64,000 nucleotides of DNA from Ostreococcus lucimarinus (GCA_000092065.1 CP000600.1), one strand, 5' to 3'; positions 15,908-64,000 are shown, numbered from the stretch's first letter. Notes: generated from the sequence alone by a model not told the origin. Numbers and translations are program-made.

Positions 15908-15928
15908 CCCTAAACCCTAAACCCTAAA
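15908..15928. repeat. Interstitial telomere-type repeat (CCCTAAA)3, i.e. a telo-box-like element, in the divergent spacer between CSN3 and the glutaredoxin-like gene
   Basis: gCCCTAAACCCTAAACCCTAAAaaa, the reverse complement of the plant-type telomere unit TTTAGGG. It lies about 340 nt from each flanking ATG. Confidence 0.8.
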
Positions 15929-16004
15929 AAATTTAGGATACTTCACTCAAGGAGAGCTTTTAGATGATATATTCATCAAAGCACCACGATCTCATCCGCG
16001 CGCC

Positions 16005-23708: not shown

Positions 23709-23721
23709 CGCGTCATCGTCG

Positions 23722-24687: not shown

Positions 24688-24847
24688 GGATTTCGGCGCC
24701 AAAACGCCGCGCAGTGACGACCGACGTCGTCGTCGTCGCGCGCGCCGGGCGCGCGCGATACCGCGCGAAGGCGCGAGCGCGCCGTTCGCATCGTCGTCGT
24801 CGTCGTCGACGGCGCGTGTGAGTCGAACGGCGCGACGGGAAGGCGCG

Positions 24848-27800: not shown

Positions 27801-28915
27801 GAATATCCGCCCAAGAAGAAGCCGAGCGAGGCCAGGGCGCTCGCGGTTCGCTCGCTGCGCTCCTGCAAGCGGACTCCGCGGCAAAGCAATGGAACATGGA
27901 TGTCATCGCTGCCGCGAGCAGTGGTGGTGCGACATGTGCGGTAAAGATCGTTAAAGTGCGCGACGGTACAATAGTTGACGTCTACGGTACGAGTGTGGAT
28001 GTGCCGAATGCCACAGCGGACGACGCCATCGCCGAGGCCACTCTAGCCGAAGCCGCACAGCTCGTCGCCGAGCAGATGTACTTGAGCGAATTCTCCGATC
28101 GCCCGGACATGGTGTACATCCCGCACACTATCGCAGAACCGATGAACTTACGCGCAGCGCTTCGTCACACCGGCGTCGGCGCCAACGCGACGAAGAAGAG
28201 TAAGGTCTTGCACCACGGTGCCGCCAAGGAAGGATCGCTCCTCGAGGCGCTCGCGGAAATGGCACTCGAGAACGCCGACGAATCCGCGCGCGCAACGGCG
28301 GTGAAATCCGCCGCGGCGCTTCGCTTAAAGGACGCCATCGGACTCGATGAGTCCCCCACGAGCATCGAAGGCGTGGACGTTTCTCATCTCGCCGGCCAGA
28401 ACGCTGTGACGAGCTTTGTTCGATTCGAGGGAGGTTCGCCGGCGCCGCTCAAGCATCGCCGATACCAGCTCAGTGAAGCCGTAACACCAAGCGACGACTA
28501 TGGTGGTATCGCTGAGTCAATAACCGCGCGCTTGGCGTCCAAGAGCAAACTTCCGGACGTCTTTCTCATCGACGGTGGAGTCGGCCAACTCACCGCGGCG
28601 GCGCACGCGCTTCGCGAAGGCGGCGTCGTCATCTCAAACATGATCGACGACGACAACACCCCGATCGCCGATTCCAGCGCAAAGGCACATCGAACCGTTG
28701 CCTTGTGCGCGCTCGCCAAGGGCCGAAGCAGCGGTGAAGAGGCTCTATGGGTCCCCGCGCTCTCGCCCGGAGGCGTCGTCATGGGCCGAAAAGTCGACGA
28801 CGCCCACCTTGACGCGCTAAAACTTCTCCGTTCGGTGCGCGACAGCGCCCACGCCGTGGCGCTCGGCGCGCATCGTTCTTTACGTCGCGAAGAGCGACTA
28901 AACGCCTTCGCTTAG
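24848..28915 (+). CDS. uvrB-uvrC: UvrB-UvrC fusion protein: complete bacterial-type excinuclease B helicase followed by UvrC GIY-YIG and RNase-H-like endonuclease domains. Single exon, N-terminal R/A/T-rich presequence.
   Basis: UvrB: [151 protein letters not shown]..helicase C ([29 protein letters not shown]). UvrC: [30 protein letters not shown] (GIY-YIG)..[80 protein letters not shown]. An alternative in-frame ATG at 24686 would add 54 aa and overlap the THUMPD1 start. Confidence 0.8.
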   Translation: [1355 protein letters not shown]

Positions 28916-28959: not shown

Positions 28960-30540
<1,581 letters not shown>

Positions 30541-30623
30541 TATCGGGAGTCTTTAGTGTTTTTGTTTGTTATGTGATGATAAACCACGTGTGCTATCTAA
30601 ATTTGCTACTTTTTGTGTGCGTC

Positions 30624-33600: not shown

Positions 33601-35846
33601 TAAAGAAGCTGCGTGAACTCGGATCGATCGAAGAAGCTGTCTCGCATGGAGAGCAACAACCCGGAACAGATGTGGTCTTGGATCAACCCTCTGAGAGGCT
33701 TCCCGTCCGTTGGTACGGTGAACTGACGATCGCCGTGCATGATTTCATACGCTTCGGCTCGTCCTAAGTGATCCTGCGGAAAGTGAAGGTTGATTTCATC
33801 CCCATCGAAATCGGCGTTGAAGGTGGAACAGTTGGAGTAGTGCATACGGACGACTCGCTGCCCCGGTAGAACCCGCGCAGTGTGCGCCAAAATACCAGGC
33901 TTGTGCAACGTTGGCTGACGATTAACGAGCATCACGTCGCCGTCGCGTAAATGTCTATACACCGTCTTTGCGAGCGGTCTCGCCGGCCCGTCCGCAGATC
34001 CAGCGGCCGTCGTTGCTAAGAGAGTCTTCGCTATGGCAGCTCGCTTTTCGGCGGTGAACTTGTCCAAGTGAATCACACGCCCTCGTTCGTCTTCGATCGC
34101 GTTCGCCCCTGGATGGATTTCAGGTCCGTTTTCAACGAGTGTGCGCATCAAGTCAACGTTATGTGGGGTGACGAGCTCGGGAAACGTGAGCTTTTTCGCG
34201 AACACCGGAGGAACGCCAATTTCGCTCGTGCCCAGGTATGGATCGGGGGAAATCACCGACCGTGCGGCGAAATTCACGCGCTTACCCATCATGTTCATGC
34301 GAAATAAACCCTCTTTCTTCTCAAGCTGCTGACGAATCCCAATAGCCTGCTTGGCTTCTTGGGTGTCAGCCTTCGTGGCGTCGATGAGCCGATTCACGCC
34401 GGATTGCAAAGCCAACCAAGCGCGTACGGCTCGGCCTGCTCGCACCTCAGGCGGCTCTGGGACCGTTGGAGGCGTCCTAAAGAGCTCGGCCAGACTTAAA
34501 TTGGCCTGGATAATCGTCGTGAGCGCCGTATTTTGCGGGTGATCAAAGATCATATCGCCCATCTTGCTTGGCGGCCGGAACTTTGACGGAGCCACGAGGA
34601 GTGTTTGAATGAAAAACCTCGCCGGATCACTTCGACGCTCTTCGCCTCGCTTCGTGCACTTATTCGGTGGGGTCGTCGCCCAGATCATGGAACAAAAATC
34701 GTACTCGTACATCCATAAACGTTTAAGCAAAGCTCGAGCCTCAATTGGGGTGATGTAAAGCGACTTTGCCGCCTCCTGCACGCGCTCATCCACGGACATC
34801 GTCTCTGAGTCGCTACTATCGCTATCGTCGCTGCTATCAGACTGCGCGTCGACGTCTCGGGCTTCACTACTCTTTTCAGCCGCACCCACGTCATCCGTCG
34901 ATCTATCCGACTCATCCCCTTCGCCGAGTCTCTTGCGCGCCTTCTTTTTCGCCGGCACGAGCTTCGGTTCCACAGCTGCGCCGGCCAACTTCGTCGCTCC
35001 AGCGTGTGAATCTGCGCTCTCGGCGCTAGCTTCGCGAGCAAGGTACGCCATATCGTCGTTGATGTCAATGCCCTTGGCTAAGTTGTTCTCGTGATGCGCC
35101 TTCGGAAGTGCACCTCTGAAGATCTTATTGTGTCCCTCGGGCGACACCTTCGGATTCATAGCCCCACAGTTCTCACACTTCTTCGGTTGTATCGCGAGAA
35201 ACTCCTTGATTAAATTTCGCGCTGCCGTGGACGTGATCGAAGTCCATACGACCGGTTCACCTCGACCACGCGTTTTCAATCTCGGCAAGACGTCGTGGAT
35301 GTTGTCTAAATCCATCTCCTCCGCATCGCCGTCGCCCTCGACCTCTTTAAACACTGAGCTCATCTCTTCCTTCGCCTTCTTGCTAATCTCCGGAAGTACT
35401 CCCTCGGCCGCTTCCATGTCACCATCCATGAGCATCTCTAACCGCTCTCGAAACCTTCGCACGCGACTGGCGTGCAAGCGAAACTTGTGACAATGAAAAC
35501 ACGTCGTCTTCAGCAACCGCACCACCGTGCCGAACGTCAACGGGTTGTACACCGGCACGACGAGCTCGAGGTGTCCAAAGTGTCCCGCGCACATCCCTCC
35601 CGGAAATTTACACGTCACGCACGTCGTTTTCGAGTCCGTCGGTCCGAGCGCGGGGTCGTACAGACCATCCGCCACCGCGTTGTTCAACCCGTCGAACAGC
35701 ACCGGGTTCGTGATCCTCTTCACCGATATCTTGCGCACATCCTCGGCGTCGTAAAAGCTGAAGCTCGCGCTCGCGATCTCTTTCTGCACCAGTCCGCGCT
35801 GTTTGACCCGGTGTCGCGCCGTCGTCGCCGTCGCATCGCGCGGCAT
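30624..35846 (-). CDS. POLR1A: DNA-directed RNA polymerase I largest subunit (RPA1/A190)
   Basis: The N-terminal zinc ribbon (CVTCKFPGGMCAGHFGHLELVVPVYNPL..CFHCHKF), the NADFDGDE catalytic motif, the funnel/cleft domains and a large D/E/S-rich insertion are typical of A190. There is no CTD heptad. The ATG is at 35844-35846 (MPRDATATTARH..). Confidence 0.8.
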   Translation of the reverse strand: MPRDATATTARHRVKQRGLVQKEIASASFSFYDAEDVRKISVKRITNPVLFDGLNNAVADGLYDPALGPTDSKTTCVTCKFPGGMCAGHFGHLELVVPVYNPLTFGTVVRLLKTTCFHCHKFRLHASRVRRFRERLEMLMDGDMEAAEGVLPEISKKAKEEMSSVFKEVEGDGDAEEMDLDNIHDVLPRLKTRGRGEPVVWTSITSTAARNLIKEFLAIQPKKCENCGAMNPKVSPEGHNKIFRGALPKAHHENNLAKGIDINDDMAYLAREASAESADSHAGATKLAGAAVEPKLVPAKKKARKRLGEGDESDRSTDDVGAAEKSSEARDVDAQSDSSDDSDSSDSETMSVDERVQEAAKSLYITPIEARALLKRLWMYEYDFCSMIWATTPPNKCTKRGEERRSDPARFFIQTLLVAPSKFRPPSKMGDMIFDHPQNTALTTIIQANLSLAELFRTPPTVPEPPEVRAGRAVRAWLALQSGVNRLIDATKADTQEAKQAIGIRQQLEKKEGLFRMNMMGKRVNFAARSVISPDPYLGTSEIGVPPVFAKKLTFPELVTPHNVDLMRTLVENGPEIHPGANAIEDERGRVIHLDKFTAEKRAAIAKTLLATTAAGSADGPARPLAKTVYRHLRDGDVMLVNRQPTLHKPGILAHTARVLPGQRVVRMHYSNCSTFNADFDGDEINLHFPQDHLGRAEAYEIMHGDRQFTVPTDGKPLRGLIQDHICSGLLLSMRDSFFDRSEFTQLLYSGLVDYCGDEHGKIDVPAPALLKPKALWTGKQVIAAVLSHITRGRPPLTFSAPCKIPATFFGGEDSGEDRLIIRRNYFCSGVVDKNMFGKYGLVHAVAELHGRSTAGALLSIFSRLFTNFLQKHGFTCGIDDLILTADAEKDRVVELNKADEMCKTATADVAEASGKSDEEVMTAIAAKLLENPEWGAQLDMKASGALNKVTSATVKKCLPFGTKKPFSKNCLSIMTISGAKGSLVNFSQIAAALGQQELEGRRVPRMPSGKTLPSFEPFDISSRANGYIACRFFSGLDPAEYFFHCMAGREGLVDTAVKTARSGYLQRCLVKNLESMRVHYDFTVRDSDGSIVQFQYGEDCVDVTRSGYLEKFEFLAENPELILLNNEAAISMLPKLNKKKVSVLETIGRKEELPRFCMENFGDQLGVLPEKFGDELKTFIDSRPKGYWAEEKGKKNESSLAAKSGLTAEEFAMLMNMRYLTYVAPPGEAVGVIAAQSVGEPSTQMTLNTFHFAGRGEANVTLGIPRLRELLMAASKKLLTPVMILPLKPGCRTKENAETLCRRLRRVILAELITKLCIKVKDYGIGPDEGLSRLYTVVIQMREGQNDDDPNEVTFAEFLHAVKRKFAKMLVARIGSDMRKSKSNNGVIVKNAKNGPMQGTTDPRKDDDEEEDDEKEKNSAARAKNVKFENGDASDEDEDDEEDEEGAKTENRKIDETEVDSDSDGSSSSGDDDSDASSDDASAKTPKSKKKRVPSSEMTDCGVQLTEDEVVETIVCDEKSRTIEFTVPAGINSPHVLVLEIAQEVAVKTIIRETPGIKQTFVVGKTDDEDPTGSQPLSIQTDGINFGAAWANSDLIEVNSMKSNSVWDIMQTFGVEAGRSTLVSEVQAVFGVYGIGVDTRHLSLIGDFMTQQGEYRPCNRSGIEKSTSPFLKMSYETATAFLTDATIRGETDDLSSPSSRIVVGRTVDLGTGSFSLKHDIVRAAQYQEANKATGKHIRL

Positions 35847-36171
35847 CGCGGCGCCGATGCCGGCGGCGGCGGCGGCGGTTCGAGCGCGGCGACGACGCGC
35901 GCGACGACGCGTTCGAGGCGCGCGCGACGGGAGCGCGCGCGATGAACGTTCGTACCCGCGGCGGGTGTCGTCGCGAAAGTCGCGCGGGCGCCGAGACGAC
36001 GGGGCGTCCGTCTGTGCGGCGCGGGTTTTCAGTCGGTTGGAGCGACGGCTCTGCGAGGTCGCGTCGCGGAGAAGAAATGGATGAAACACTCTAAAGCTCG
36101 ATTTGATCACACGCGAGACTACGGCGCTCGCGAACGATGTTGTTGTGTAGATCTATGGAGACTATGTTTTG

Positions 36172-37278
36172 TTAATGCATCGGAGAGTGCAGGTCGTCGT
36201 AATCGGAAGAATTGCTCACATAGGAAAGGGGCGGCGTGCCGAGATCGCTGCCGAGCGCGATAAACGTCGCGTTTGGATCCTCGAATTTTCTAATCCACGG
36301 GTGCTTCATAATGCGCTCGATGTTGAAACGACGTCGAGGGTCGACGCGCAAACATCCCGCGATCAAGTCTTTGGCGCCCATGCTGATGGAGTCCCACGTC
36401 TCCACGTCGTACTTGAAGGCGGTGAAGTTGCCTTGGCGAATTTTCTCGCAAAGCGTTCGACTATCTTCGCCTTCAAAGGGAAGGTATCCCGCCAATAACG
36501 TGTACATGATCACGCCGAACGACCATACATCCACCGACGGTTGCCGATCGCGTCCTCGAGAGTCCGGCTTCAAGCGCTCGGGCGCGGCGAAGTGTAACTT
36601 TCGCGCATCCTCTGGAAACGTTCGCGTCACCGGTTGTCCCAACTCATCCTCGATCTCGTACGTCCCGTACTCCACGACGTACGGCGAAGGGTGTCCCGCT
36701 AACGATGCATAACGCATCGACGTCACCACTAATTCCATGTTATCTTCCTCTCTAAACACCAACGTATCTAAATCCAAATTCCCACACGTCACCCCGCAGT
36801 CGACGAGGTGCTTCAACACCGACGCCAGTTGCACCATGATCTCCCGCGCCTCGTCCTCACCGAGCTTCGCCCCGTCCTTCTGTTGCAAGTAATCGATCAG
36901 TTTCGCCCCGCGCAACCGATCCACGATCAACACCCCCATCGCCGGTCTCTTTCGCAGCTCCGTGAAGCTCTCGTACACGCTCGCCACGCCGTCGTGACGC
37001 AACAACTGCAACACGTACTCCTCCATGGAAAACTGCGATATCGTCAAGCTCTCGCCGTCCGCCTGCTTTTTCAACCGCGCCAACACCGCCGTTCGCGCGC
37101 TCCCGTCTTCCCTCGACACGACGTCGAACGCGCCTCCGTACGCGTCGAACGTCGCCTTGGATTCCACCTCGTACGCGTCCACGAACGCCACCGGAAACAA
37201 CGACTTCATCACCGCGAGCGACCGATCGCGCGCCTTCACGCTCCCCGCGCGCTTCAGCGTTCCCTGCGCGCATCCCAT
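36172..37278 (-). CDS. CAMK-like protein kinase-fold protein, predicted pseudokinase, N-terminally myristoylated/palmitoylated (MGCAQG..)
   Basis: The kinase-fold landmarks APE (HFAAPERL) and the alphaF region (DVWSFGVIMYTLLAGYLPF) are present. HRDLKPEN is replaced by TCGNLDLDTL and DFG by TSM, so the catalytic Asp, loop Lys/Asn and DFG Asp are all missing. The MGC N-terminus fits an N-myristoylation site. Confidence 0.6.
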   Translation of the reverse strand: MGCAQGTLKRAGSVKARDRSLAVMKSLFPVAFVDAYEVESKATFDAYGGAFDVVSREDGSARTAVLARLKKQADGESLTISQFSMEEYVLQLLRHDGVASVYESFTELRKRPAMGVLIVDRLRGAKLIDYLQQKDGAKLGEDEAREIMVQLASVLKHLVDCGVTCGNLDLDTLVFREEDNMELVVTSMRYASLAGHPSPYVVEYGTYEIEDELGQPVTRTFPEDARKLHFAAPERLKPDSRGRDRQPSVDVWSFGVIMYTLLAGYLPFEGEDSRTLCEKIRQGNFTAFKYDVETWDSISMGAKDLIAGCLRVDPRRRFNIERIMKHPWIRKFEDPNATFIALGSDLGTPPLSYVSNSSDYDDLHSPMH

Positions 37279-46533: not shown

Positions 46534-46792
46534 CGTCGCGACGCGCCGCCGCGAAGCGCCGCCGCGACGCCGCCGACCGCGCGCGCGCGAGTGCCTCGTT
46601 CGCGCGACGGATCGGGCGACGGACGGGTTTTAGTATTGCGTCGTATCCCAAACCCTAGGATACAATATACATATTCAACGACCCAGTAGACGCATCGGCG
46701 CGCGCTGTAGATATACACGACACCGCACTGTATGCGCACACACGCAATCCGCGAGCCGGTCGCGATCGCGGCACACCTCGACGCATCCCGCG

Positions 46793-49700
46793 ATGCGCGC
46801 GCACGTCACCCTCCGCGCGGCGACGCCCGCGCGCGCCGCCGCGACCGTGCGCGCGGGCCGACGACCGTCCGCGATGCGCGCCGACGCGGCGCCGACGCGC
46901 GCGACGAGCGCGCGCGTCGCGTACGGCAACGCGTCGACGACGACGCTCAAGCTCGACGCGCGAGGCGCGACGCGAAGGCCGACCCTAGGCGGGGGGCGTC
47001 GACGATTCGAGACGCGCGCGATGTTTGAGGTGCGCGCGACGCGACCGCGAGGGCGGGGCACGCGAGCGTGTATTTTGATGCGTCGCGGACGCGGCGCGGA
47101 GGGGGAGGGGCGACGCGGGAGAGGACGAGGGACTGACGAGACGATGGCTTCGATCGACGCGCGCGCAGCGGTTCACGGAGAAGGCCATCAAGGTGGTGAT
47201 GTTGGCGCAGGAGGAGGCGCGGCGATTGGGGCACAACTTCGTCGGGACCGAACAGGTGAGTGGAGAGAATATTGAACGCGCGAACGGGCGCGGATTCGGG
47301 GCGCGGGGAAGGGGTAGGGCGGCGTCGGGGGGGACGCGGAGGACGCGACGTTAGGTTTAAGCGGGAAGGCGCGGCGCGCGGGGAACGCGCGGCGGCGTCG
47401 CGGGCGCGAGGAACGCGAGGACGGCGCGCGAGGACGCGTGGGAGGGGTGGAAGATGCGCGCGCGCGCGCGCGACGGCGCGATACGGACGGTGACTGACGA
47501 GACGGCGTTCGCGACGCGACAGATCATGCTCGGTTTGATTGGCGAAGGCACCGGCATCGCGGCCAAGGTGCTCAAGTCGATGGGCATTTCGTTGAAGGAA
47601 GCGCGCATCGAGGTTGAGAAGATTATTGGACGCGGTTCCGGTTTCGTCGCGGTGGAGATTCCGTTCACGCCGCGCGCGAAGCGCGTGTTGGAGCTCGCGC
47701 TCGAGGAGGCGCGCCAGTTGGGCCACAACTACATCGGCACCGAACACTTGTTGCTCGGTTTGCTCCGTGAAGGCGAGGGCGTGGCTGCGCGCGTGCTCGA
47801 AAACCTCGACGCCGACCCGGCAAAGATTCGTTCTCAAGTGATTCGCATGGTTGGTGAGACGCAAGAAGCCGTCGGCGCGGGCGCCGGCGGCGGCCAAGGC
47901 GCGCAATCCGGCTCCAAGACGCCGACTTTGGAAGAGTTCGGTAGCGACCTCACCAAGAAGGCTGAAGAGGGTAAGCTCGATCCGTGCATCGGTCGTGCGA
48001 ACGAAATCGTTCGCGTCACGCAAATTCTCGGTCGCCGTACCAAGAACAACCCGTGCTTGATTGGTGAACCGGGCGTCGGTAAGTCTGCCATTGCCGAAGG
48101 TCTCGCGCAAAAGATTGCCGCCAACGACGTTCCGGATACTCTCGACTCCAAGCGTATGATGACGCTCGATATGGGTTTGCTCGTCGCCGGTACCAAGTAC
48201 CGTGGTGAGTTCGAGGAGCGTCTCAAGAAGCTCATGGACGAAGTGAAGAGTGATGAAAACATCATCCTTTTCATCGACGAAGTCCACACGCTCATCGGCG
48301 CCGGCGCGGCGGAGGGCGCCATCGATGCGGCGAACATCTTGAAGCCGGCCTTGGCGCGTGGTGAACTCCAGTGCATCGGTGCGACGACTATTGACGAGTA
48401 CCGCAAGCACATCGAGAAGGATCCGGCGCTCGAGCGTCGTTTCCAACCGGTTCAAGTTCCGGAGCCGTCGGTGGATGAAACCATTCAAATTCTCCGCGGA
48501 CTCCGCGAGCGTTACGAATTGCACCACAAGCTCAAGTACGATGACGACGCTTTGATCGCCGCCGCAAAGTTCTCGAGCCAGTACATCTCCGATCGTTTCT
48601 TGCCGGACAAGGCGATCGATCTCATCGATGAGGCTGGTTCTCGCGTGCGACTGGAAAACGCCGCCCTCCCGGAGGAAGCCAAGGAACTCGATAAGGAGCT
48701 CAAGGCTTTGATGAAGGAGAAGGATACGGCCATCCGCTCTCAGGATTTCGAAGCCGCTGGTGGCCTTCGTGATCGCGAAGTCGAGCTCAGAGCTCAAATC
48801 AAGCAAATCACCGAGCGAAAGCAAGAGGAGAACAAGGCGAAGGCTGAATCCGGTGACGCGTCTGGTCCGACGGTGGTCGAGCAAGACATTGCCGATATTG
48901 TCGCCGCCTGGACTGGTATCCCCGTCGATAAGGTGTCTTCCGATGAAGGTACCCGATTGATGGACATGGAAGAAACCCTTCACAAGCGATTGGTTGGTCA
49001 AGAAGAAGCCGTCGTGGCGTGCGCTCGCGCCATTCGCCGCGCCCGTACCGGCTTGAAGAACCCGAACCGTCCGGTCGCGTCCTTCATCTTCTCCGGTCCC
49101 ACTGGTGTCGGTAAATCCGAGCTCGCCAAGTCCCTCTCTGCCTTTTACTTCGGTTCCGAAGAAGCCATGGTTCGTCTTGATATGTCCGAATTCATGGAGC
49201 GCCACACTGTTTCCAAGCTCATCGGTTCCCCGCCGGGTTACGTCGGTTACTCTGAGGGTGGTCAGCTCACCGAGGCTGTTCGGCGGCGTCCGTACACCCT
49301 CGTGCTTTTCGATGAAATCGAAAAGGCGCACCCGGATGTGTTCAACATGATGCTTCAAATCCTCGAAGACGGTCGCTTGACCGACTCCAAGGGTCGCGTG
49401 ATTGACTTCAAGAACACCCTCATCATCATGACGTCGAACGTTGGTGCGTCGGCGATTGAAAAGGGTGGCGGTGGATTGGGCTTCCAACTCGACGACAACG
49501 CGGAGGATCAGTCCTACAACCGCATTAAGAGCTTAGTCATGGAAGACTTGAAGAACTACTTCCGACCGGAATTCCTCAACCGTCTTGACGAAATCATCGT
49601 GTTCCGTCAACTCAACAAGCAAGAAGTGCGAGAAATTGCGTACATCATGCTCGAGAACGTCTTCAAGCGCCTTAAGGAGAAGGAAATCGTCCTCGAATGC

Positions 49701-49949
49701 ACGGAGCGATTCAAGGATCGTCTCGTCGACGAGGGTTTCTCTCCGGCGTACGGTGCGCGTCCTTTGCGTCGCGCCATCATGCGCTTGCTTGAGGACAACC
49801 TCTCCGAGAAGATGCTCACGGGTGAGATTTCGGAGGGTTCGTCGTGCATTATGGACGTGAACGCGGAAGGTGAAATCACGGTGTTGACTGGCGACGGTAG
49901 AGAGCTGAAGGCTGGTAGCGCGATCGGTGGTCCGGCTGGCATCGCGTAA
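46793..49949 (+). CDS. CLPC: Chloroplast ATP-dependent Clp protease ATP-binding subunit ClpC (Hsp100), 3 exons: 46793..47029, 47169..47255, 47523..49949
   Basis: Exon 1 is the transit peptide and ends ..RAMFE. Exon 2 is [29 protein letters not shown]. Exon 3 is [21 protein letters not shown].., followed by two AAA+ modules ([16 protein letters not shown]; [14 protein letters not shown]) and a UVR-like linker. Both introns have GT..ACTGACGAG..CAG. Confidence 0.85.
47030..47168 (+). other. ClpC intron 1 (139 nt)
   Basis: GTGCGCGCG donor after the MFE codons, GGGACTGACGAG branch, GCGCAG acceptor. It restores the conserved [12 protein letters not shown] junction. Confidence 0.75.
47256..47522 (+). 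other. ClpC intron 2 (267 nt), G-rich, similar to the uL11c intron
   Basis: GTGAGTGGAGAGAATATT donor region, internal TTAGGTTTAAGCGGG and GGGAGGGGTGGAAGA, GTGACTGACGAG branch, GACAG acceptor. It restores ..GTEQ|IMLGLIGEG. Confidence 0.75.
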
Positions 49950-50256
49950 TTCTAGGCTGCGAGAACGCTTAAAAAATGATTGATTACAAAATGACTTTTG
50001 TTCTTTGGGGGTCACCCCATCATCAGCGTCGGAGCCTGTGTTATTAGGCGATTTAGATTACGTGTCTCTCACGCATGTTATACGATGAAACGAGCGAATT
50101 AACACCCGCGCGCGCCGAACCACATAAGTGACCTCTTCTCCTCTGAGCTCGTCAGTCCACGACACGGCCCGAATTCTCAGAGCAATTTGACAGATTGTTT
50201 TGATTGTTTGTATCGATTATCACAACTGTTGTATGTTCGTAACGTCGCAACGAATC

Positions 50257-53121
50257 CTAAGCCAGCAACTGAACCAAGTCCCCCCGTATAGAGCACGTCT
50301 CTTGCTCGACGAGTAACATCGCTGCGTCTCGAACTTCCTGCACGCTGAGCGCCATAGAACCGTCTCTCTCCGCGAGCATCTTTACCAACTCACTCAATCT
50401 AAGTCGACCGCTCGACGACGTCAAGCACGCCGTGATACCGTCAGCGATGACCTTGCGGTGTTGACGATCGCTCGCACTGTGTCCGGTTAAAATCTTGTCC
50501 ATGTCGATGGTGCCCGTTCGGGGATCGACGGCGGATTGTTGCATGGCGACGCGCATCAAACGCAACGCTTCCTTCGCGTCGTCGCGATCGACTCGGACGC
50601 TCAAGCGCATACGGGCGAGAGACTCTGAAAGACGGATCAAAGACTCCAACTGTCTCGGCGTCGCCGTGATCACTTTACGACTACCTCCCATGCGACGCAT
50701 CTCCACGTACCCTTCGACGAGCTCCTCCGCGGCTTCATCGCTCAGCACCGGTTGTACGTGAGATCGCGCGAAAGAAACGTAGTCGGTGAGCAACGACGCT
50801 TCAATCGCGCCGCGCTTCTTTTGCGGCGGATCTTTGTAGTGCAAGCTCACCAAGTGTCGCGCCAATCGTCGATCCGTCTCCGGGTTCGCGCGATCGAGCA
50901 AAAGGTACAACAAATCGAAACGCGAGAGAAGCGTGGGCGGAAGCTGAATGTTCTCCACCATGGACATATTTGGGTTGTATCGACTCCCCACCGGGTTCGC
51001 GGAGGCAAGCACGGATGTTCGCGCGTTTAACACGGCGATGATGCCAGCCTTGGCGATGGAAACCGTTTGTTGCTCCATGACTTCGTGCAACATCGATCGA
51101 GCGCTATCAGACATTTTGTCAAACTCGTCGATGCAACAAATTCCTCTATCGGAAAGCACAAGGGCTCCAGATTCAAGAACCATGTCCTTTGATTCCGGAT
51201 CGCGTGTGACGTACGCCGTGAGACCGACCGCTGAGGAACCTCTGCCCGAGGTGTACATGCCGCGCGGCGCGATGCGGTGGACGTACGTCAACAATTGCGA
51301 CTTGGCCACCCCCGGATCACCGACTAGTAAAACGTTTATATCACCGCGAACTTTATTTGCTGCGGTGCCACTGAATGTCTTGTTCGTCGCCCCGAAGAGT
51401 TGGCACAGTAGCCCTTTCTTCACGTCTTCCAACTCCCAAATCGACGGCGCGAGCGACGCCACGAGACGTTGGTAAATATCCGGCGATCGCCCGAGCTCTT
51501 CGATCTCCGCCGTCCTCGCCGGAGTGAACTCGAGTTGGGCGTTCGGATTTTGATTGCTCGCCGGTTTCGATGCGCGCTCGGCGGAAGAATGCTTCGCCGC
51601 TTCGTCGTCTTCGGTGCCCGCGGTGTTTCGCATGCGATTACCGGCGTCTTTTCTAATGTGAATAATGTCCAAGTACGTCTTGTACACGCTCTTCAACGTC
51701 CTTCGCGTCGAACTGATGCGAATCGGCACGGCGCGGTACACTCCCGTGACTTCCACGCGATCGCCGGGTTTGGCTTGGTCGACGAGTTCGTCGAAAACGC
51801 ACATCGAAACAGTGTGTGGGGTTTCACCCTCGGGAATCGCGTCCGGCGTCTCTTGCATTTTGACGGTTTGCTTGTTCGCGAAGACGCACTGGTTATGAAT
51901 CAACGTCATCGTCCCTGGCTTTCCGCACTCCGTACACTTGAGCGGGGGCTCGTTCACGCGTCCACGATCAACCTGAACGTGCTCGGGGGCGAACCCGCAC
52001 ATCAAGCATTTGAAGTACGCGAGCTTCAGATCGGGAATAATCGTCGTGCATCGCGTCACCATCCCGCGCACGCACACCATCTTGTCAATATCCGAAGGAT
52101 TCAAGTCACGCATCGGCTTGGCGTCCATCATGTTGAACGGTCGAACGATGATTCGCGCGGCGGGCGTGTCCTCGTCCATATCTTCGGGCGCGACGACGTT
52201 TTCCAAAAAGTATTCGTTCGCCACGACATCAAAGAGCGGAATGATCTCTTGCGGATAATGAATCAACTGCTTGTACAAAAACTCATCGTACTCGTGCACG
52301 TGTTGACAATCCAAATCCAAGTGCGTGTGCTCTTTTTCGTAAATCTCTCGCATGCGCTCGTCGTAGTACGAATCCGCGGAGTCGGGCAATTCAAAGTTTT
52401 CGATAAACCTCCGAAAGCGCTGCTGCGTGTCGAGCACGTTCACCCTCGTCCCCCAAATGTACGTCTGCGCCGCCACCTCATCCCGCTGCGCCTGCGCCGC
52501 GTGCAAGTGTTCGCCCGCGCTCATCGGCGGCGACGCCAAGAAATCCGCCGCGTCCTGCGTCGCCGTCAACTGTGTCATCTCCTGCGTCCCGTATCGTTGA
52601 CTCGCCCCCGGCGCGCCGAATCCGTCGTCGTCCCCGTCCGTCACCCGCCTCGCCCTCGCGCTCCCATTCAGCCCCAAATCGCTCCTCGGCGTCGCTCTCG
52701 GCGTCCCAAACAATCTCGGCGTCCCAAACTGTCCCTGTCCCTGTCCCTGTCTCGCCGGCGTCACCGCCTCCCGCGTCCCGTTCGCCCCGCTCGACCGTCG
52801 CCGCGCCGGCGGCGAAAACAAATCCTCCATCGGGCTCCCTCTCCCTCGTCCCGCGCCCTCGGGCCCCCCGACCGCCCGCGCCCGCGGCGGCGACATCAAC
52901 CCCACGTCCGCGCCCGCGCTCGCCCCGCCTCGCCCCCCCGACCGCGTCGGCGCCGCGTTCTCGTCGTCCTCGTCCCCAGCTGTCGTCGCGATCGCGACGT
53001 CCCGCCCGTCCCGCGTCGTCGTCTCCGCGTTCGCGTCGCTCAGCCGTCGTCGCGTCGTCGCCGGCGACGCCGACGGCAACCTCGACGGCGCCTTCCTCGG
53101 GCTTCGTCGCGGCGTCGACAT
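50257..53121 (-). CDS. MCM4: DNA replication licensing factor MCM4 (Ser/Pro-rich N-terminal tail, C4 zinc finger, MCM AAA+ core)
   Basis: Zinc finger CLMCG..(19)..[14 protein letters not shown], Walker [12 protein letters not shown], arginine finger/SRFDLL, and an N-terminal S/T-P-rich region ([20 protein letters not shown]..) typical of MCM4. The ATG is at 53119-53121. Confidence 0.8.
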
Positions 53122-53282
53122 CGCCGTCGAGCGCGTCGCGGTGTCGCGCGGCGTTTGAAATCCGCCGCGCGCGCGATTCAAACGCGCGACGAGACTGGGT
53201 TTACACACGGACGCATCGATCCCCCGTCGACCGGTCGCGACTCGACGACGCGGGGGGTCCGCGTCGTCGATCGGTCGGATCG

Positions 53283-53290
53283 TATATAGG
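53283..53290. promoter_or_regulatory. Canonical TATA box (TATATAGG) in the MCM4 / uL11c divergent spacer
   Basis: cggatcgTATATAGGcgttcg, about 205 nt upstream of the uL11c ATG and about 165 nt from the MCM4 ATG on the other strand. Confidence 0.35.
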
Positions 53291-53495
53291 CGTTCGACGC
53301 CGCGATGTGCGACGCGCGCGCGCGATTTTCATTTACGTCGCGGGTTCAGGGTCGCGCGACGTCGGCGACGTCGGCGCGCGCGCGGGCGCGACGCGCGCGC
53401 GCGACGCGCGGCACACCGCGACGACGTCGCGACCGACCCACGAGGCGCCGCACGTCGCGCGTCGACACACGCCACCGCGCACCACGAGCTCGAAC

Positions 53496-54476
53496 ATGTT
53501 CGCGCGAACCATCGGCCGCGCGCGCCCCGCGCGCGCGACGCCCGCGGACAAGCGCGCGGACAAGCGCGCGGCGGCGACGCGCGCGATGACGCGCCCGGTC
53601 GCGCTCGGCGACGCGCGCGCGGTATTTACGACGAGCGCGTTCAGGGCGAACGCGGTCGAGCGCGCGCGCGACGTGCGCGCGCGCGGGGCGAGACGGTCGA
53701 CGGTGATGGCGGCCAAGGTGGCGGGGTACATCAAGCTCGCGATCGAGGCGGGGAAGGCGTCGCCGGCGCCGCCGATCGGACCGGCGCTCGGCGCGAAGGT
53801 GCGTGAGAATATTTCGTTCGACGCGACGACGGCGCGCGCGGGACGCGCGCGCGGACGCGCGCGAGGGAGGGGTGGGAGAACGCGCGCGGCGGGTGAGGGT
53901 GGAAGACCTAGGCGAGAGAGGGTTTCGCGCGGCGACGCGAGCGCGCGAGGGACGACGGCTGGGCGCGACGCGCGGGCGCGGTGGCGAGGGAGACGCGCGC
54001 GCGATGGATCGATGGTCGCGGGGGACGCGCGCGGCGCGGTCGGGACGCGAGTGGTGCGGTGAATCGACGCGAACGGCGACTGACGACGACGACGACGCGC
54101 GCGCGCGATTCGCGGCACGCAGGGCGTGAACATCATGATGTTTTGCAAGGAGTACAACGCGCGCACGCAAGATCAACCGGGTATGATCATCCCGGTCGAG
54201 ATTACCGTTTTCGAGGATAAGTCCTTCACGTTCATTTTGAAGACCCCGCCGGCGTCGGTGTTGTTGAAGAAAGCCGCGGGCGTGCCCAAGGGGGCGGGCG
54301 ATCCGCAAAAGCAAGTCGTCGGGCGCGTGACCAAGGAGCAACTCGAGGAAATCGCCAAGATTAAGATGCCCGATTTGAACTGCGTCAAGGTGGAAAGTGC
54401 GATGAAGGTCGTCGCCGGTACCGCGGCGAACATGGGGATCAAGATTGACGGCTGGCCCGAGGTCGACGCCGCGTAA
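53496..54476 (+). CDS. RPL11: Chloroplast ribosomal protein uL11 (nuclear-encoded), 2 exons: 53496..53798 and 54123..54476
   Basis: Exon 1 is the transit peptide plus [32 protein letters not shown]. The donor GTGCGTGAG and a 324-nt intron carrying GGCGACTGACGACG and CACGCAG follow. Exon 2 is [53 protein letters not shown].. (the L11 signature). Confidence 0.85.
53799..54122 (+). other. uL11c intron (324 nt), G-rich, related to ClpC intron 2
   Basis: Shares GAGAATATT near the donor, GGGAGGGGTGG, GGTGGAAGA and a GAGGGTTTCGCGCGG element with ClpC intron 2. The branch ACTGACG lies 48 nt before the acceptor. Confidence 0.75.
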
Positions 54477-54742
54477 AGCGCGACGACGACTGCGGACGCC
54501 CCGTCGTAGCCGAGACGAAGGCGCGCCGAAGAACATTCTTACGCTCCCGTGGCGATAAATTCATATAAATTGCTCGAAGACCTCGCGTAGTGGTCTGCGT
54601 TAGATTTGTAAATGCTTTATACCTAGTGATGAAAACGAACGCCCCCTCGACTCGCGAAGAGACGACCCTCGCGCGCCCAAGCCCTATCCGCGAAACGCGA
54701 ATCGGTGCGTGTGAATTATAACAATGCTACGCTGACGACGCC

Positions 54743-55254
54743 CTACTTCTTCAACTCCCGGTGAAGCGTGTGCTTTTGCAAGAACGGATTGTACTTCATC
54801 AACTCCAATCTCTGCGACGTGTTACGACGGTTCTGCGAATCGAAAACGAGCGCGCCTCCGTCAGTCCTTCGTCCCGAAACCCTCAAATCGTCCCGTCGTC
54901 CCATCCCTCGTCGTCCCGCGCCGTCCCGCGCCGGCCTCGGCGCGCGTCCCGCGCGCGCCCGCTTCGCCTCGCGTTCGCCCGCGCGTCATCGCTTACCTTC
55001 TGGGTCATGTATCGCGACATCCCCTGCACGCCGCTCTCCTTTTGCTCGGTGCACTCGAGGGTGACTTGCAGGCGCACGTCCTTCTTCTTGCTCGCCGCCG
55101 TGACGACGAGCGCGCCGCGCGAGCGCTCTCTGGCGCTCGCGGCCGACGGGCGCGCGGCGAGCGAGCTGGTGGAGCAGACGTTGGCGCGGGCGGCGAGCAT
55201 GGCGAGTCGCGGCGCGGAGTGCCGGCGCGGCGATCGGGCGGCGGACGTCGGCAT
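54743..55254 (-). CDS. RPL33: Organellar ribosomal protein bL33, 2 exons: complement(join(54743..54832,54997..55254))
   Basis: Exon 1 is the presequence plus [29 protein letters not shown]. The minus-strand donor is GTAAGC, the branch ACTGACG (plus strand CGTCAGT at ~54859-54865) is followed by CAG, and exon 2 is [29 protein letters not shown]. Compare E. coli L33 ..[33 protein letters not shown]. Confidence 0.7.
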
Positions 55255-55388
55255 CGCGCGCGTGTGCGCAAACAGTACGCGTGTACTTTTATGGGGTGGT
55301 CGGTCGGACACCGCGCGCGCGAACCGCGCCCGAACCGCGCGCGCCGACGCGCGCGACGCGAGTCCGCGACGCCGACGCGCGCGCCGTC

Positions 55389-56082
55389 ATGTCCGCCGAC
55401 GCCTCGACGCGACGATTCAAGATTTACACCAAGACGGGCGACGCGGGGACGAGCTCGCTGTACAATTGCGAACGACGCGATAAGGACGACGCCGCGTTCG
55501 ACGCGCTCGGGGACGTCGACGAGTGCAACGTCGCGTGCGGGATCGCGCGGGAGTTTTGCGTCGATGAAAACAACGGGCTCGAGGCGCAGGTGCGGCGTCG
55601 ACGACGACGGACGCGAGGGGAGAGAGCGAGGCGACGACGCGCGGCGAGCGACGACTGACGGGGACGACGAACGACGCGACGCGCAGCTCGCGGAGATTCA
55701 GAGTCGATTGCTCGACGTGGGATCGGCGGTGGCGACGCCGCTGTATGCAAGCTCGGACGCGATGAAAGCGCGCGCGGCGTTTTCGGAGACGCACGTGGAG
55801 ACGTTGGAGGGATGGATCGACGGGATGGACGCCGAGTTGCCGGCGCTGTCGAGTTTTCTGCTCGTGTCGGGGGGGAAGGCGAGCGTGTTTTTACACCAAG
55901 CGCGCGTCGTGTGTCGACGCGCGGAGCGTAGGTGCGTGCCGTTGGTGCGGAGCGGAGCGGTACCGGACGTGGTGCGGGTGTACTTGAATAGATTGAGCGA
56001 TTACATGTTCACCGCCGCGCGTTTCGCGGCGATGAAAGCGGGCAGAGAGGAGGAGGCGTACAAAAAGTCGACGGCGAATTGA
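55389..56082 (+). CDS. MMAB: Cob(I)alamin adenosyltransferase, PduO/MMAB type, 2 exons: 55389..55589 and 55687..56082
   Basis: Exon 1 KIYTKTGDAGTSSLYNCERRDKDDAAFDALGDVDECNVACGIAREF. A 97-nt intron (GTGCGG..GACGACTGACGGGG..GCGCAG). Exon 2 LAEIQSRLLDVGSAVATP..LEGWIDGMDAELPALSSFLLVSGGKASVFLHQARVVCRRAER..YLNRLSDYMFTAARFAA. It is collinear with human MMAB. Confidence 0.8.
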
Positions 56083-56160
56083 ATCGGGACGTGTCGAAAT
56101 AATCGAGCGAGCTTGCAAATACTACGTCTACGTTAGGTGTACAAATGATCTATTCAACGC

Positions 56161-60648: not shown

Positions 60649-62007
60649 CTCGCCGAGCCGTTCGGCGTCTCGATCGCGCGTCTCAATCGCGCCGCGCGTC
60701 GCCTCGAAGCTCTTTCGCGATGCTTTTTGAAATCCAAAAGATCTCGCGTTCGCGTCGCGTCGTCCGCCGTTCGCGCGTCGTTCGCGCGTTCGCGCGTTCG
60801 CGCGTTCGAGACCGCGACCGAGGCGCTTCGGCGCGCGGTCGCTCGCCTCGTCGCGCGCGCGGTCGCGGCGTCGGCGTCCGCGGCGTCGCGCGCCGCGCGT
60901 CGCGCACAGGGAGGCGAGCGAAACACGGACCAGTCTCACGGATACGAAACGACACAACACGGACCGGTGACCCGAAACGACGCCGACGGTCGCGCGCGCC
61001 GTCGACGCCGACGCGCGCGACGACGATGGCGCGCGCGCCGGCGACCGACGGCGGCGACGCGGCGTCGGCGTTTCGCGCGCGCGATGACGGCGCGAGACGC
61101 GCGTATAACGTCGAGATCCCGGCGGCGTGGCAGCGCGAGAGCGTGGACGAGTCGCTGCTGCGAGGGCACAGAAGCGCGTGTACAACGGCAACGCGCACTG
61201 ATCGTCGTACGCGTACACGCCTCGCGATCGCCCCGAGCGCCGAGGAGGGCGCCGCGACCGTCGCCCTCCTCGAGCGAGGTTTCGCGAACGCGCTTGCTCG
61301 CGACGAGCTCCGGCGCCGCGCAAAGCTTCGCGAGACGACTCGCAGCCGCGCGCGCACATATCGCTCGGTCGCCCGCGTCTTGACCGGGCGCGAGCGCGAT
61401 TTGCGCGAGCCGCGCGAAATTTCGGTCCCCCGCGACGCGCGCGTTCTCCGCCACGCGTCGTTGGCGTCGCAGAAACTTTTTCGCGTGCGTCTTCTTCGTC
61501 ATGCCTCCATGTGACGTTTCGTCTCGGCGTCTCGACCTCGTGACGCGCGCCTCGGACGCGCGCGAGGGCACCTCGGCACTCTGCGACGCGCGCGCGACTC
61601 GGCGCGGTCGTCGCGGACGCGTCGCGAGAGAAGAAAAAAAGTCGAGCGTCGAACCGCGCGTCGTTCGAGCGCCGCGCCGCGGCGCGCGCGACGCGCGGAC
61701 GCGCGAGATGGGGCGCGTTGAAGCGGCGTTTCTCGGCGCCGGATCCCGCCTCGGGCGGCGCCTCGGGCGTCGCGCGCGCGACTAGCAAGACACGAAAACG
61801 AAGGAAAGAAAGCGGGTACGAATTCTTTTGAATCGATGTGCGCGGCGATGGACGCGCGCGCGCGCGTTCGCGCGCCGACTCGCGCGATCGTCATCTCCGA
61901 GACGGGCCGCGCAGACTGACCCTCGCGCAGAGGCCGACGCCAGAAGACACGCGAAACAAGGCGGCGATAGCGTACAAACTATCGCTCGCCTGCGGCAGGT
62001 TAACCCA

Positions 62008-62034
62008 GGGTTGACCCAGGGTTGACCCAGCCGC
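62008..62034. repeat. 11-mer tandem repeat GGTTAACCCAG/GGTTGACCCAG x3 in the long SSRP1-Cpn20 spacer, about 350 nt upstream of the Cpn20 ATG
   Basis: caggttaacccagggttgacccagggttgacccagccgcag. Confidence 0.75.
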
Positions 62035-62380
62035 AGCATTACACCCTCGCGACGCGAGGACGCGAAGGAGGGACAGCTCGCTCGCGCGATCTCGTAGCCC
62101 TCGAAAGTAGCGATTGTAATGCGCCGGAAGACTTCCATCGAGTCGCTTCGCCGAGAGAGCGCCGACGACGTCGAGCGCGGCGCCGCCGTCGCAGACGCCG
62201 CCGCCTCCCCGCGCTAGCCTACCCTCCCAATATTAGTATACTTCACCCACCGTCGTTTTCTTCCCCATCGCGCGTCGCGCGACGACGTCCACGACGTCTC
62301 CAAATTCCGCGCGCGCCGCGGAGGCGTCCTTCCAGAAGCCGACGCCGCGCGCGCGTCCTCATTACTCGCCGCACATCCGA

Positions 62381-63280
62381 ATGTTCGCCGTCTCCGCGCA
62401 CTCGCGCGCGCGCATCGCGCCCGCGGTCATTCCGCGCGCGCGCGCGCGCGTCGTCACGCGCGCCGGCGCCGCGTTCGAGGTGCCGTCGGCGTACAAGACG
62501 GTGACGCCGTGCGGCGCGGGCGTCTTAATCAAGGTGGCGGCCGCGGAAACGGTGACCAAGGGCGGGATCGTGCTCACGGAGAGCGCGCAGCGCAAGCCCA
62601 CGAGCGGTGCGTCGACGCGTTCGACCGACGCGCGCGCGCTCGAGGACGGGCGACGCGACCGCGCGACGCGCGCGGGGGATAAAGGACGACACCCTAACCT
62701 TGAGGGTTTGACGGCGGGACGCGCGGCGAGACGCGCGAGACGCGAATGGATCGACGCGCGAACGCGAGCGACGCGCGAAGACTGACGACGATGACGAATG
62801 AATCGCGCAGGCGACGTCACGGCGATCGGACCGGACGTGAAACACGTCAAGACCGGTTCCACGGTGTTGTACAGCAGATTCGGCATCGGGTGCACCGACG
62901 TGGTCGTCGCCGGCGAGGAGTACACGATGATTCGAGAACAAGATCTCATCGGTACGCTCCCGAGCAGCGGCGCGCGCGCGAACGATATCCCAAAGCTTCA
63001 ACCTTGCGGCGATCGCGTCCTGTTGTCGGTGGAGAAGGCGGCCGCGGAAACCAAGGGGGGCATCTTACTCACGGAGGGGTCCAAGGAGAAGCCCATCGTC
63101 GGCACCGTCGTCGCCGTCGGGCCGGGCAAGGCGGGCGAAAAAGACGAAGAAGTCAAGCCGATGACCCTGAAGGCGGGCGACAAGGTGATTTACTTCAAGT
63201 ACGCCGGTGACCAAATGACCGACGAGGAAGGCAACGGCTTCGTCGTCTTGCACGAGAGCGACTGCTTGGCCAAGCTTTAA
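62381..63280 (+). CDS. CPN20: Chloroplast 20 kDa chaperonin Cpn20 (tandem GroES domains), 2 exons: 62381..62606 and 62811..63280
   Basis: Exon 1 is the transit peptide plus VTPCGAGVLIKVAAAETVTKGGIVLTESAQRKPTS(G). A phase-1 donor g|GTGCGTCG and a 204-nt intron with GAAGACTGACGACG and CGCGCAG follow. Exon 2 is (G)DVTAIGPDVKHVKTGSTVLYSRFGIG.. and a second GroES domain LQPCGDRVLLSVEKAAAETKGGILLTEGSKEKPIVGTVVAVGPGK.. Confidence 0.8.
62607..62810 (+). other. Cpn20 intron (204 nt) containing CCCTAACCTTGAGGGTTTGACGG
   Basis: GTGCGT donor, ACTGACG 24 nt before the CAG, phase-1 split Gly codon. It carries a telomere-unit-like CCCTAA / GGGTTT pair. Confidence 0.7.
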
Positions 63281-63745
63281 GCCGCGCGCGCGTCGCGTCG
63301 CTCGTTTAGAACGTCGACGTTGTGAGTACCAGCGCCGGATCGAACGTCGAACCGACACATCGCAGAGCCTTCGCCGCGCGCGTCGCGTCGCGTCCTCCCC
63401 TCGCGTCCTCGCCCTCGCCGACAAAAAAGAACGCAACGCGTAAACAGAAACCACGATACTCGCTCCGCGCGAACCCGCGCGTCGGCGCCTTCGCCGCGCG
63501 ATCGGCGCGATCGCTTACGGGCCGATCCATCGACCGACCGCGCGCGCGCGTACGCGCAAACAGTCTCGCGATCGAACCACCACCCAATAAACCACCCATC
63601 GCATTGAAATCACGCATTCAAAGACCCCGAACCGGTATCGATCTCCACCCCGCGCCGCCCGACGCGACGCCCGTCGCGCGCGCGGTCGATCGCGCGATCG
63701 CGCGCTTCGTCGCGCCGCGACACTCCCGCACGCGCGCACAGGACC

Positions 63746-64000
63746 ATGCAAGTCAACGCCCTGCTCAAGAAAGCCGCCCCCGCGCCCGCCAAGACCGCCA
63801 AGGCGCCGGCGAAGACGCAGATCAAGAAGGCGCCGGCGAAGAAGGCGTCGCCGTCGCTGCCGTCGCTGCCGAATCCGTTCGGCGGCGCCGCGCCCAAGGC
63901 GAGCGCGAAGACGGTCAAGAAGGCCGCGCCGGCGAAGAAGGCGGTCGCGAAGAAGGCGCCGGTCAAGAAGGCGCCGGTCAAGAAGAAGGCGCCGGTCGCG
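63746..64000 (+). CDS. 5' part of a Lys/Ala/Pro-rich protein (histone-H1-like or ribosomal-protein N-terminal-like). It continues past the window end.
   Basis: ATG at 63746, MQVNALLKKAAPAPAKTAKAPAKTQIKKAPAKKASP..KKAAPAKKAVAKKAPVKKAPVKKKAPVA, no stop before the edge. It is absent from the ORF track because it is edge-truncated. Confidence 0.35.
   Translation, partial: MQVNALLKKAAPAPAKTAKAPAKTQIKKAPAKKASPSLPSLPNPFGGAAPKASAKTVKKAAPAKKAVAKKAPVKKAPVKKKAPVA

Follow-up and report, generated by a model that had tools for sequence, protein, structure and literature searches.

Several long introns in genes for chloroplast proteins of the prasinophyte alga Ostreococcus lucimarinus contain short words that resemble the telomere repeat, and they raise the question of whether such words reflect a common origin of the introns, a regulatory site, or base composition alone. 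We examined this question in a 64,000-nucleotide stretch of its genome (CP000600.1; hereafter the window, with positions counted from its first nucleotide) that contains the genes for ClpC, uL11c, bL33c, and Cpn20. A first-pass annotation of the window had singled out ClpC intron 2 and the introns of uL11c and Cpn20, and had offered three readings of what they share: membership of an introner-like family of propagated introns, a cis-element akin to the telo box of plants, or RNA able to form G-quadruplexes. Phylogenetic footprinting across three to five Ostreococcus lineages and two Micromonas species supports the second of these. We consider it probable that the 5′-proximal introns of four chloroplast-protein genes carry a site of the telo-box type, which a regulatory factor would read as double-stranded DNA. 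The proposed element would have the core AGGGTTT (AAACCCT on the opposite strand), with the variant TAGGTTT in ClpC, and would often be preceded by a RACCTAGG half-site.

Conserved telomere-like blocks in four chloroplast-protein genes

Translation across each of the proposed splice sites yields uninterrupted ClpC, uL11c, Cpn20, and bL33c proteins (Table 1), and the spliced ClpC product is 100% identical to ClpC of O. lucimarinus CCE9901. We assign bL33c to the chloroplast type because its matches in the PDB are far stronger to bL33c (E 1e-21 to 1e-16) than to the mitochondrial bL33m (1e-5 or worse), and the Cpn20 product matches the Chlamydomonas chloroplast Cpn23/Cpn20. A scan of the window for the branch-point consensus recovered 10 introns, all with a GT donor and with GACTGAC(G) 27–47 nt before a CAG acceptor, in agreement with the extended branch point reported for Ostreococcus (PMC3879977). 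Those of the four genes are ordinary, ancient U2-type spliceosomal introns with donor GTGCGT or GTGAGT, branch point GACTGACG, and acceptor CAG. The three introns highlighted initially are, as claimed, unusually long (204, 267, and 324 nt compared with 65–188 nt for the others), and the strings quoted from them (AGGTTTAAGCGGG, AGAGGGTTTCGCGCGG, and CCCTAACCTTGAGGGTTTGACGG) do occur in the sequence. Their description as the 5′-most introns of their genes holds for uL11c and Cpn20, where they are the sole introns, and fails for ClpC, where the intron in question is the second. The Cpn20 intron had been placed within 47256–54122 and lies in fact at 62607–62810, and a fourth gene with a motif-bearing intron, bL33c, had been overlooked on the minus strand (54833–54996), where it carries TTTGAGGGTTT. 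As a separate observation, the spliced uL11c and Cpn20 proteins (genes at 53496–54477 and 62381–63281) have no exact or full-length match in the protein collection, where their only matches are exon-2 open reading frames (ORFs) from metagenomes; the public O. lucimarinus annotation seems to lack both genes or to model them wrongly.

Related loci came from look-ups of exact proteins and from a single scan of metagenomes, for which uL11c exon 2 was the query; the scan returned largely bacterial L11, and its useful loci were L016–L020 and L022–L024 only. The ClpC–MCM4–uL11c–bL33c–CobAT region was available from O. lucimarinus (L001, L016, L103, and the first 6 kb of L002), O. tauri (L008, also L003–L006), two further Ostreococcus-type lineages (L017 and L018), Micromonas pusilla CCMP1545 (L007), a second Micromonas (L019), and Bathycoccus (L014, L020, and L022–L024). 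For Cpn20 we had loci from three more Ostreococcus-type lineages (L096, L098, and L100) and from Bathycoccus (L101 and L102). The order of the five genes in the window (46793–56100) is kept in Ostreococcus, Bathycoccus, and Micromonas (L008, L014, and L007, respectively). A further candidate for comparison, P0125, was set aside after it turned out to consist of intron-less transcript assemblies. The metagenome contig L002 is a chimera, with a first 6 kb that is 99% O. lucimarinus and a remainder that is O. tauri-like (~75% identity to the window), joined near position 5986 within MCM4.

Global MAFFT pairwise alignments misplaced the conserved blocks, and local alignments and iterative multiple alignment were used instead. 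Orthologous introns proved otherwise unalignable, and what remains in them is AGGGTTT or its variant TAGGTTT together with the splice signals (in uL11c also GACGCG). In an unbiased enumeration of 6- to 8-mers with at least three A/T, the sole words besides the branch point to occur in at least three of the five O. lucimarinus introns of these genes and in at least three of their five O. tauri orthologues were AGGGTTT and the shorter GGGTTT and AGGGTT contained in it; the heptamer is absent from all five other introns of the window, in line with the initial claim that the shared blocks are missing there. In local alignments of O. lucimarinus introns with their O. tauri orthologues, the highest-scoring match is anchored at the heptamer for uL11c (AAGACCTAGG..GAGGGTTT), bL33c (CGATTT[G/C]AGGGTTT), and Cpn20 (TGAGGGTTTG). 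Invariant blocks of at least 5 nt, counted in the multiple alignments with the splice signals set aside, gave the same picture. Across four Ostreococcus lineages the uL11c intron keeps AAGACCTA and GAGGGTTT, its sole invariant 8-nt blocks, plus the low-complexity GACGCG, and the bL33c intron keeps AGGGTTT; in ClpC intron 2 the variant TAGGTTT is the sole block, besides the branch point, that is invariant in three lineages. The Cpn20 intron of L100 contains a composite, AACCTAGGAGGGTTTG, reminiscent of the uL11c element. A telomere-like block, now on the opposite strand, is likewise the top local match in each intron when M. pusilla is compared with the second Micromonas: CCCTAAACCCTC in uL11c, AAACCCTA in bL33c of both species, and, in ClpC intron 2, TAGGTCAA at the place corresponding to TTAGGTTTAAG of O. 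lucimarinus. Altogether, the heptamer occurs in 11 of 11 orthologous uL11c, bL33c, and Cpn20 introns of other Ostreococcus-type and Micromonas lineages. ClpC intron 1, which served as internal control, showed no conserved block beyond the branch point in the comparison of O. lucimarinus with O. tauri.

The heptamer, counted on both strands, is present nine times in the window against 2.1 expected: three copies lie in the uL11c, bL33c, and Cpn20 introns, always on the sense strand, three in two upstream regions (that of ClpC and a CCCTAAA tract at 15908–15929), and three in coding sequence. Its concentration is sharper in the relatives. The three copies in the 12.4 kb of the O. tauri-like locus L003 are exactly those of the three introns (probability that all three land in these 654 nt by chance, about 0.00015), the two copies in the 21 kb of the M. 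pusilla locus are exactly those of the uL11c and bL33c introns (about 0.001 for both landing in 638 nt), and L096, L098, and L100 have a single copy each, inside the Cpn20 intron. Among the nine intron-bearing genes of this one window, the element is found in all four that serve chloroplast translation or act as chloroplast chaperones and in none of the other five. The proposed link with plastid-protein genes is upheld to this extent, and it is not universal, as an LHC-like gene shows (see below).

Related sites occur outside the introns. The conserved sites all fall within about −140 to +560 nt of the ATG and occupy exon 1, one of the first two introns, or the sequence upstream of the gene. 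About 40 nt ahead of its ClpC ATG, O. tauri carries GAGGGTTGTAC. In ClpC exon 1, GACCCTAG is invariant in five species, spelled with the leucine codon CTA, which makes up only 2 of the 166 leucine codons in the verified coding sequence of the window; the use of this rare codon in an invariant site amid an unalignable transit-peptide region points to constraint at the nucleotide level. The full plant telo box, AAACCCTA, is found upstream of ClpC, in the promoter tract at 15.9 kb, and in the Micromonas bL33c introns.

Table 1. Coordinates of the genes, introns, and sequence elements discussed (window positions)
Feature	Position	Strand	Remarks
ClpC upstream: full telo box AAACCCTAGG, overlapping TAGGATAC	46650–46663	+	~140 nt before ATG 46793
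ClpC gene	46793–49949	+	exon 1 46793–47029; exon 2 47169–47255; exon 3 47523–49949
GACCCTAGG in ClpC exon 1 (transit-peptide coding)	46981–46989	+	cross-species alignment
ClpC intron 1	47030–47168	+	139 nt, G-rich
ClpC intron 2	47256–47522	+	267 nt; donor GTGAGT; branch point GACTGACG 47492–47499; acceptor CAG
GAGAATATT in ClpC intron 2	47265–47273	+	10 nt into intron; AGAAT alone kept in O. tauri and L017
TTAGGTTTAAG in ClpC intron 2, core TAGGTTT	47351–47361	+	invariant in 3 Ostreococcus lineages
GGGAGGGGTGGAAGA block in ClpC intron 2, common to uL11c intron	47440–47454	+	orthologues keep GTGGA only
GGGTTTA in MCM4/uL11c divergent spacer	53197–53203	+	O. tauri: CAGGGTTTAGGGAC; L017: (GGGTT)3
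uL11c gene	53496–54477	+	exon 1 53496–53798; exon 2 54123–54477
uL11c intron (sole intron)	53799–54122	+	324 nt; donor GTGCGT; branch point GACTGACG 54078–54085
GAGAATATT in uL11c intron	53805–53813	+	7 nt into intron; O. lucimarinus-specific
GGGAGGGGTGG in uL11c intron	53865–53875	+	O. lucimarinus-specific
uL11c bipartite conserved element GGTGGAAGACCTAGG-CGAGA-GAGGGTTT	53898–53925	+	alignment of 4 Ostreococcus lineages
bL33c intron (sole intron)	54833–54996	−	164 nt; branch point GACTGACG 54866–54859; ATG at 55200
GATTTGAGGGTTT in bL33c intron	54877–54889	−	10 nt 5′ of branch point
Tandem near-palindromic ACCCAGGGTTG, ~2.5 copies	62000–62032	+	~350 nt upstream of Cpn20 ATG
Cpn20 gene	62381–63281	+	exon 1 62381–62606; exon 2 62811–63281
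Cpn20 intron (sole intron, phase 1)	62607–62810	+	204 nt; branch point GACTGACG 62780–62787
CCCTAACCTTGAGGGTTTGACGG in Cpn20 intron	62692–62714	+	TGAGGGTTTG kept in 5 Ostreococcus-type lineages

Intron age and the blocks common to two introns

ClpC intron 2 and the uL11c intron had been said to share more than their splice signals, and this is indeed the case. They have six CpG-free 9-mers in common, arranged in three colinear blocks, where dinucleotide shuffles shared 0.02 on average and at most 3 in 2000 trials, and they rank at the top of the 45 real intron pairs, every other pair sharing two or fewer. Within the window, GAGAATATT, GGGAGGGGTGG, and GGTGGAAGA each occur exactly twice, once per intron, and both copies of GAGAATATT stand within 10 nt of the donor site. 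One may therefore ask whether a single propagated element was copied into several genes, as happened with the introner elements of Micromonas, and the colinear blocks and the placement of GAGAATATT near the donor speak for such an origin. Most of the other evidence speaks against it. The local alignment of the two whole introns reaches only z = 2.1 against dinucleotide shuffles and rank 14 of 45, plain local alignment being weak here because (CG)n low complexity dominates every intron. A repeat search of the whole window found low-complexity CG and GAC families only, and no further copies of the shared blocks exist in the 64-kb window or in an additional 9 kb of O. lucimarinus. The blocks are also missing from the orthologous introns of sister lineages, and two papers on introners describe such families from strains of Micromonas and from metagenomic sequences related to these (PMC3879977, PMC4540971). 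One of the three, GGTGGAAGA, in part belongs to the conserved uL11c element, for which L018 carries GGGTGGAAAGACCTA; the extra blocks GAGAATATT and GGGAGGGGTGG are statistically real yet mostly lineage-specific, and they do not amount to whole-intron homology.

The age of the introns bears on the same question. ClpC introns 1 and 2 and the introns of uL11c and bL33c occupy identical codon positions in Ostreococcus and Micromonas, the sites being filled in O. tauri, the two further Ostreococcus lineages, and the two Micromonas species, and the positions of the uL11c and Cpn20 introns are the same in Bathycoccus as well, a lineage that has lost ClpC intron 2 and the bL33c intron (L014 and L023). 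Introns whose positions are shared with Micromonas or Bathycoccus are old, older than these genera, and not recent gains. Together with the lack of whole-intron similarity, these old positions rule out a recent introner-type spread, and we regard descent of the introns from any propagated family as highly improbable. The CobAT intron of O. lucimarinus (55590–55686) is absent from O. tauri (L008 18486–18779), which made it unusable as a cross-species control.

A putative telo-box-type site and the alternatives to it

This alga has a telomere repeat of the TTTAGGG type (PMC2794166), and the core of the conserved block equals one unit of it; the closest known counterpart is for this reason the plant telo box. 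Since the sense strand carries the block in Ostreococcus and the antisense strand does so in Micromonas, the block is most likely read as double-stranded DNA. Judged from comparative sequence data, the element would be a putative binding site of a telomere-repeat-binding Myb-like factor and would act on transcription or chromatin, and hence on expression, from a position 190–560 nt beyond the start codon; purifying selection would have preserved it while the remaining intron sequence diverged to saturation, and related copies in the upstream regions of the same genes and in ClpC exon 1 may belong with it. In a genome whose intergenic spacers are ~200 bp long, introns would accommodate such sites, and this fits the trend in O. 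lucimarinus towards more and longer introns in genes with higher expression (PMC2367439).

A number of observations weigh against this interpretation. The intronic sites of Ostreococcus match the plant telo box at seven of eight positions (AAACCCTC or AAACCCTG, not AAACCCTA), and ClpC intron 2 has only the variant with two Gs (AAACCTA). In uL11c, bL33c, and Cpn20 the sites lie 317–423 nt after the ATG, beyond the range of about −60 to +140/180 from the transcription start site in which plant telo boxes reside (PMC2576244). Bathycoccus lacks the element, its uL11c and Cpn20 introns carrying AAAACCT at most. The motif is neither universal in plastid-protein genes, the 336-nt G-rich intron of the LHC-like gene being without the heptamer, nor restricted to them, as the telomere tract in a CSN3/GST promoter shows. 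Orientation is uniform within each genus, with the G-strand as sense in Ostreococcus and the C-strand as sense in Micromonas; it follows the strand composition of the introns and could mean a constraint that is strand-specific or exerted on RNA. Finally, the sample is small, since it covers ~73 kb of O. lucimarinus DNA (the 64-kb window and 9 kb more) and a few loci from relatives.

The strand asymmetry of these introns invites an explanation at the level of RNA, in which the G-rich strand, through G-quadruplexes or GAGGGUUU, would act in the pre-mRNA as a splicing enhancer or regulatory G-quadruplex. The sense strand is G-rich, as noted in the first-pass annotation, with a GC skew of +0.14 to +0.37 in the ClpC, uL11c, bL33c, and Cpn20 introns and of about 0 in four others. 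G4Hunter maxima are 1.0–2.4 for the introns of the O. lucimarinus plastid-protein genes, and a canonical motif of four runs of at least three Gs is found in two of the five introns of the four genes (ClpC intron 2 and bL33c) and, in O. tauri, in the bL33c and Cpn20 introns. The consistent sense orientation in Ostreococcus and the placement of the bL33c block 10–25 nt upstream of the branch point in four lineages would also suit a role in RNA. This explanation is nevertheless difficult to reconcile with the distribution of these features. The quadruplex motif is not kept, being absent from ClpC intron 2 of O. tauri and L017 and from the bL33c intron of L017 and L018, so that in ClpC intron 2 only O. 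lucimarinus has it and L017 and L018 have none; the orthologous Micromonas introns are C-rich on the sense strand and carry the complement, AAACCCU in RNA. We accordingly rejected the G-quadruplex as the conserved feature. Moreover, the block lies 10 to about 150 nt from the branch point, depending on the gene, and the same motif family occurs in untranscribed upstream regions. Multiple alignments of the orthologous introns contain no conserved sequence beyond the short blocks, and an Rfam scan of 46–64 kb gave no family match, which leaves an intron-hosted snoRNA unsupported. We thus hold an RNA-level element to be quite unlikely, and the G-richness is a compositional trait of these Ostreococcus introns at the level of the lineage, separate from the conserved feature.

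A DNA site could also serve a purpose other than the activation of its host gene, such as the recruitment of Polycomb or other chromatin factors, the formation of a boundary or positioning of nucleosomes in a very compact genome, or the function of an internal or cryptic promoter for a transcript that is nested or lies next to the gene. In Arabidopsis, PRC2 is recruited to telo boxes via TRB proteins (PMC8788455), telo boxes in combination with other boxes mark cryptic pol II promoters within introns (PMC3022908), and the genes considered here are arranged tail-to-tail or head-to-head with intergenic spacers of about 190–590 nt. Set against these precedents, no conserved sequence that could be a nested RNA follows the motif in the introns, no Rfam family matches the region, and the hosts are housekeeping genes of chloroplast biogenesis, which are improbable Polycomb targets; we give such roles a low, though not negligible, likelihood. 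The remaining possibility, that the motifs are functionless products of chance and compositional bias or neutral relics of telomerase-mediated repair, draws on the frequency of G-rich words in G-rich introns, the shortness of a heptamer, and the post hoc choice of the motif in the discovery species. It would have to account for the presence of the heptamer in the 11 orthologous introns counted above, from species outside the discovery set, its frequent absence from the remainder of each locus at the low chance probabilities given above, and an invariant block amid unalignable flanks, and we find it barely credible. A telo-box-type site for a regulatory factor remains the interpretation that we favour.

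Parallels, neighbouring features, and biological meaning

The telo boxes of Arabidopsis and rice cluster in 5′ untranslated regions, favour the first two introns over later ones, and are typical of genes of the translation apparatus (PMC3022908); the telo box is also among the few promoter words kept between distant plants (PMC2576244). The element described here resembles it in having a telomere repeat unit as its core, in its placement towards the 5′ end of the transcription unit, introns 1 and 2 included, in its persistence across species where other promoter sequence is not kept, and perhaps in an association with translation-apparatus genes. It differs in coming from a prasinophyte alga and in lying far inside introns, over 300 nt past the ATG; in addition, the Ostreococcus sites end in C or G instead of A and are often paired with a RACCTAGG half-site, and the hosts are chloroplast ribosomal proteins and chaperones. 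Among other systems, intron-mediated enhancement by the first introns of plants likewise involves conserved sequence in a promoter-proximal intron of genes that are likely well expressed. Its signals are dispersed, redundant, and orientation-dependent, whereas we observe a single discrete block whose orientation is flipped between genera. The introner elements of Micromonas (IE-A to IE-D, ABC-IE, and E2-IE) are, like these, spliceosomal introns of Mamiellales with sequence common to unrelated genes, and those of class IE-C share the GACTGACG branch point (PMC3879977); they are whole-intron repeats with hundreds to thousands of copies at lineage-specific positions, in contrast to blocks of 7–11 nt at ancient positions. 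The ‘rpg box’ of yeast, through which the telomere-binding protein Rap1 drives ribosomal-protein genes, offers a functional parallel, already drawn for the telo box by Gaspin et al. (PMC3022908), as a site of telomere-repeat type reused to co-regulate genes of the translation machinery, with another motif and factor, an upstream instead of intronic location, and a fungal lineage. Our literature search found no account of telo boxes in the introns of Mamiellales, although its coverage was incomplete and earlier reports may exist.

Several further features of the window deserve mention. A short interstitial telomere tract, CCCTAAACCCTAAACCCTAAAA followed by TAGGATACTTCAC, occupies 15908–15946, in the spacer from which a CSN3-like gene (minus strand, 14268–15815) and a GST/glutaredoxin-like gene (plus strand, from ~16081) diverge. 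The word TAG[G/T]ATAC is found three times in the 64 kb (0.24 expected), at 15934–15941, 46656–46663, and 62234–62241; all copies are intergenic, each is located just 3′ of telomere-like sequence, two extend as ATACTTCAC, and the word may be a core-promoter element. The LHC-like (chlorophyll a/b-binding) gene, which is represented by 63747–64000 of the window and 1310–2577 of L103, encodes a protein with a Lys/Ala/Pro-rich N-terminal extension. A single plus-strand ORF of 1736 codons (23705–28915) combines UvrB-type helicase domains with UvrC endonuclease domains and appears to be a UvrB–UvrC gene fusion. The stretch from 30000 to 37000 has a lower GC content (0.50–0.56 versus about 0.65 elsewhere) and coincides with a minus-strand ORF of 1828 codons for an Rpb1-type largest RNA polymerase subunit.

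More tentatively, telo-box control of genes for translation and chloroplast biogenesis might predate the split between chlorophytes and land plants, and the ultra-compact genomes of Mamiellales might house the sites in 5′-proximal introns, an extension that we think possible and still rather doubtful. O. tauri is transformable, and tests by mutation or inversion of single sites are therefore practical. If the element were inert, ordinary old introns with a compositional quirk would remain. If it is a working telo box, a part of the cis-regulatory code known from flowering plants would extend to the deepest branch of the green algae, and telomere-repeat-binding factors would have a very old connection with the machinery for building ribosomes and chloroplasts. 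It would also provide a concrete reason why Ostreococcus retains introns in a genome that has otherwise been stripped of its non-coding DNA. On the more tentative extension, introns would constitute a protected regulatory space, which would explain the long introns of well-expressed genes among the most gene-dense free-living eukaryotes.

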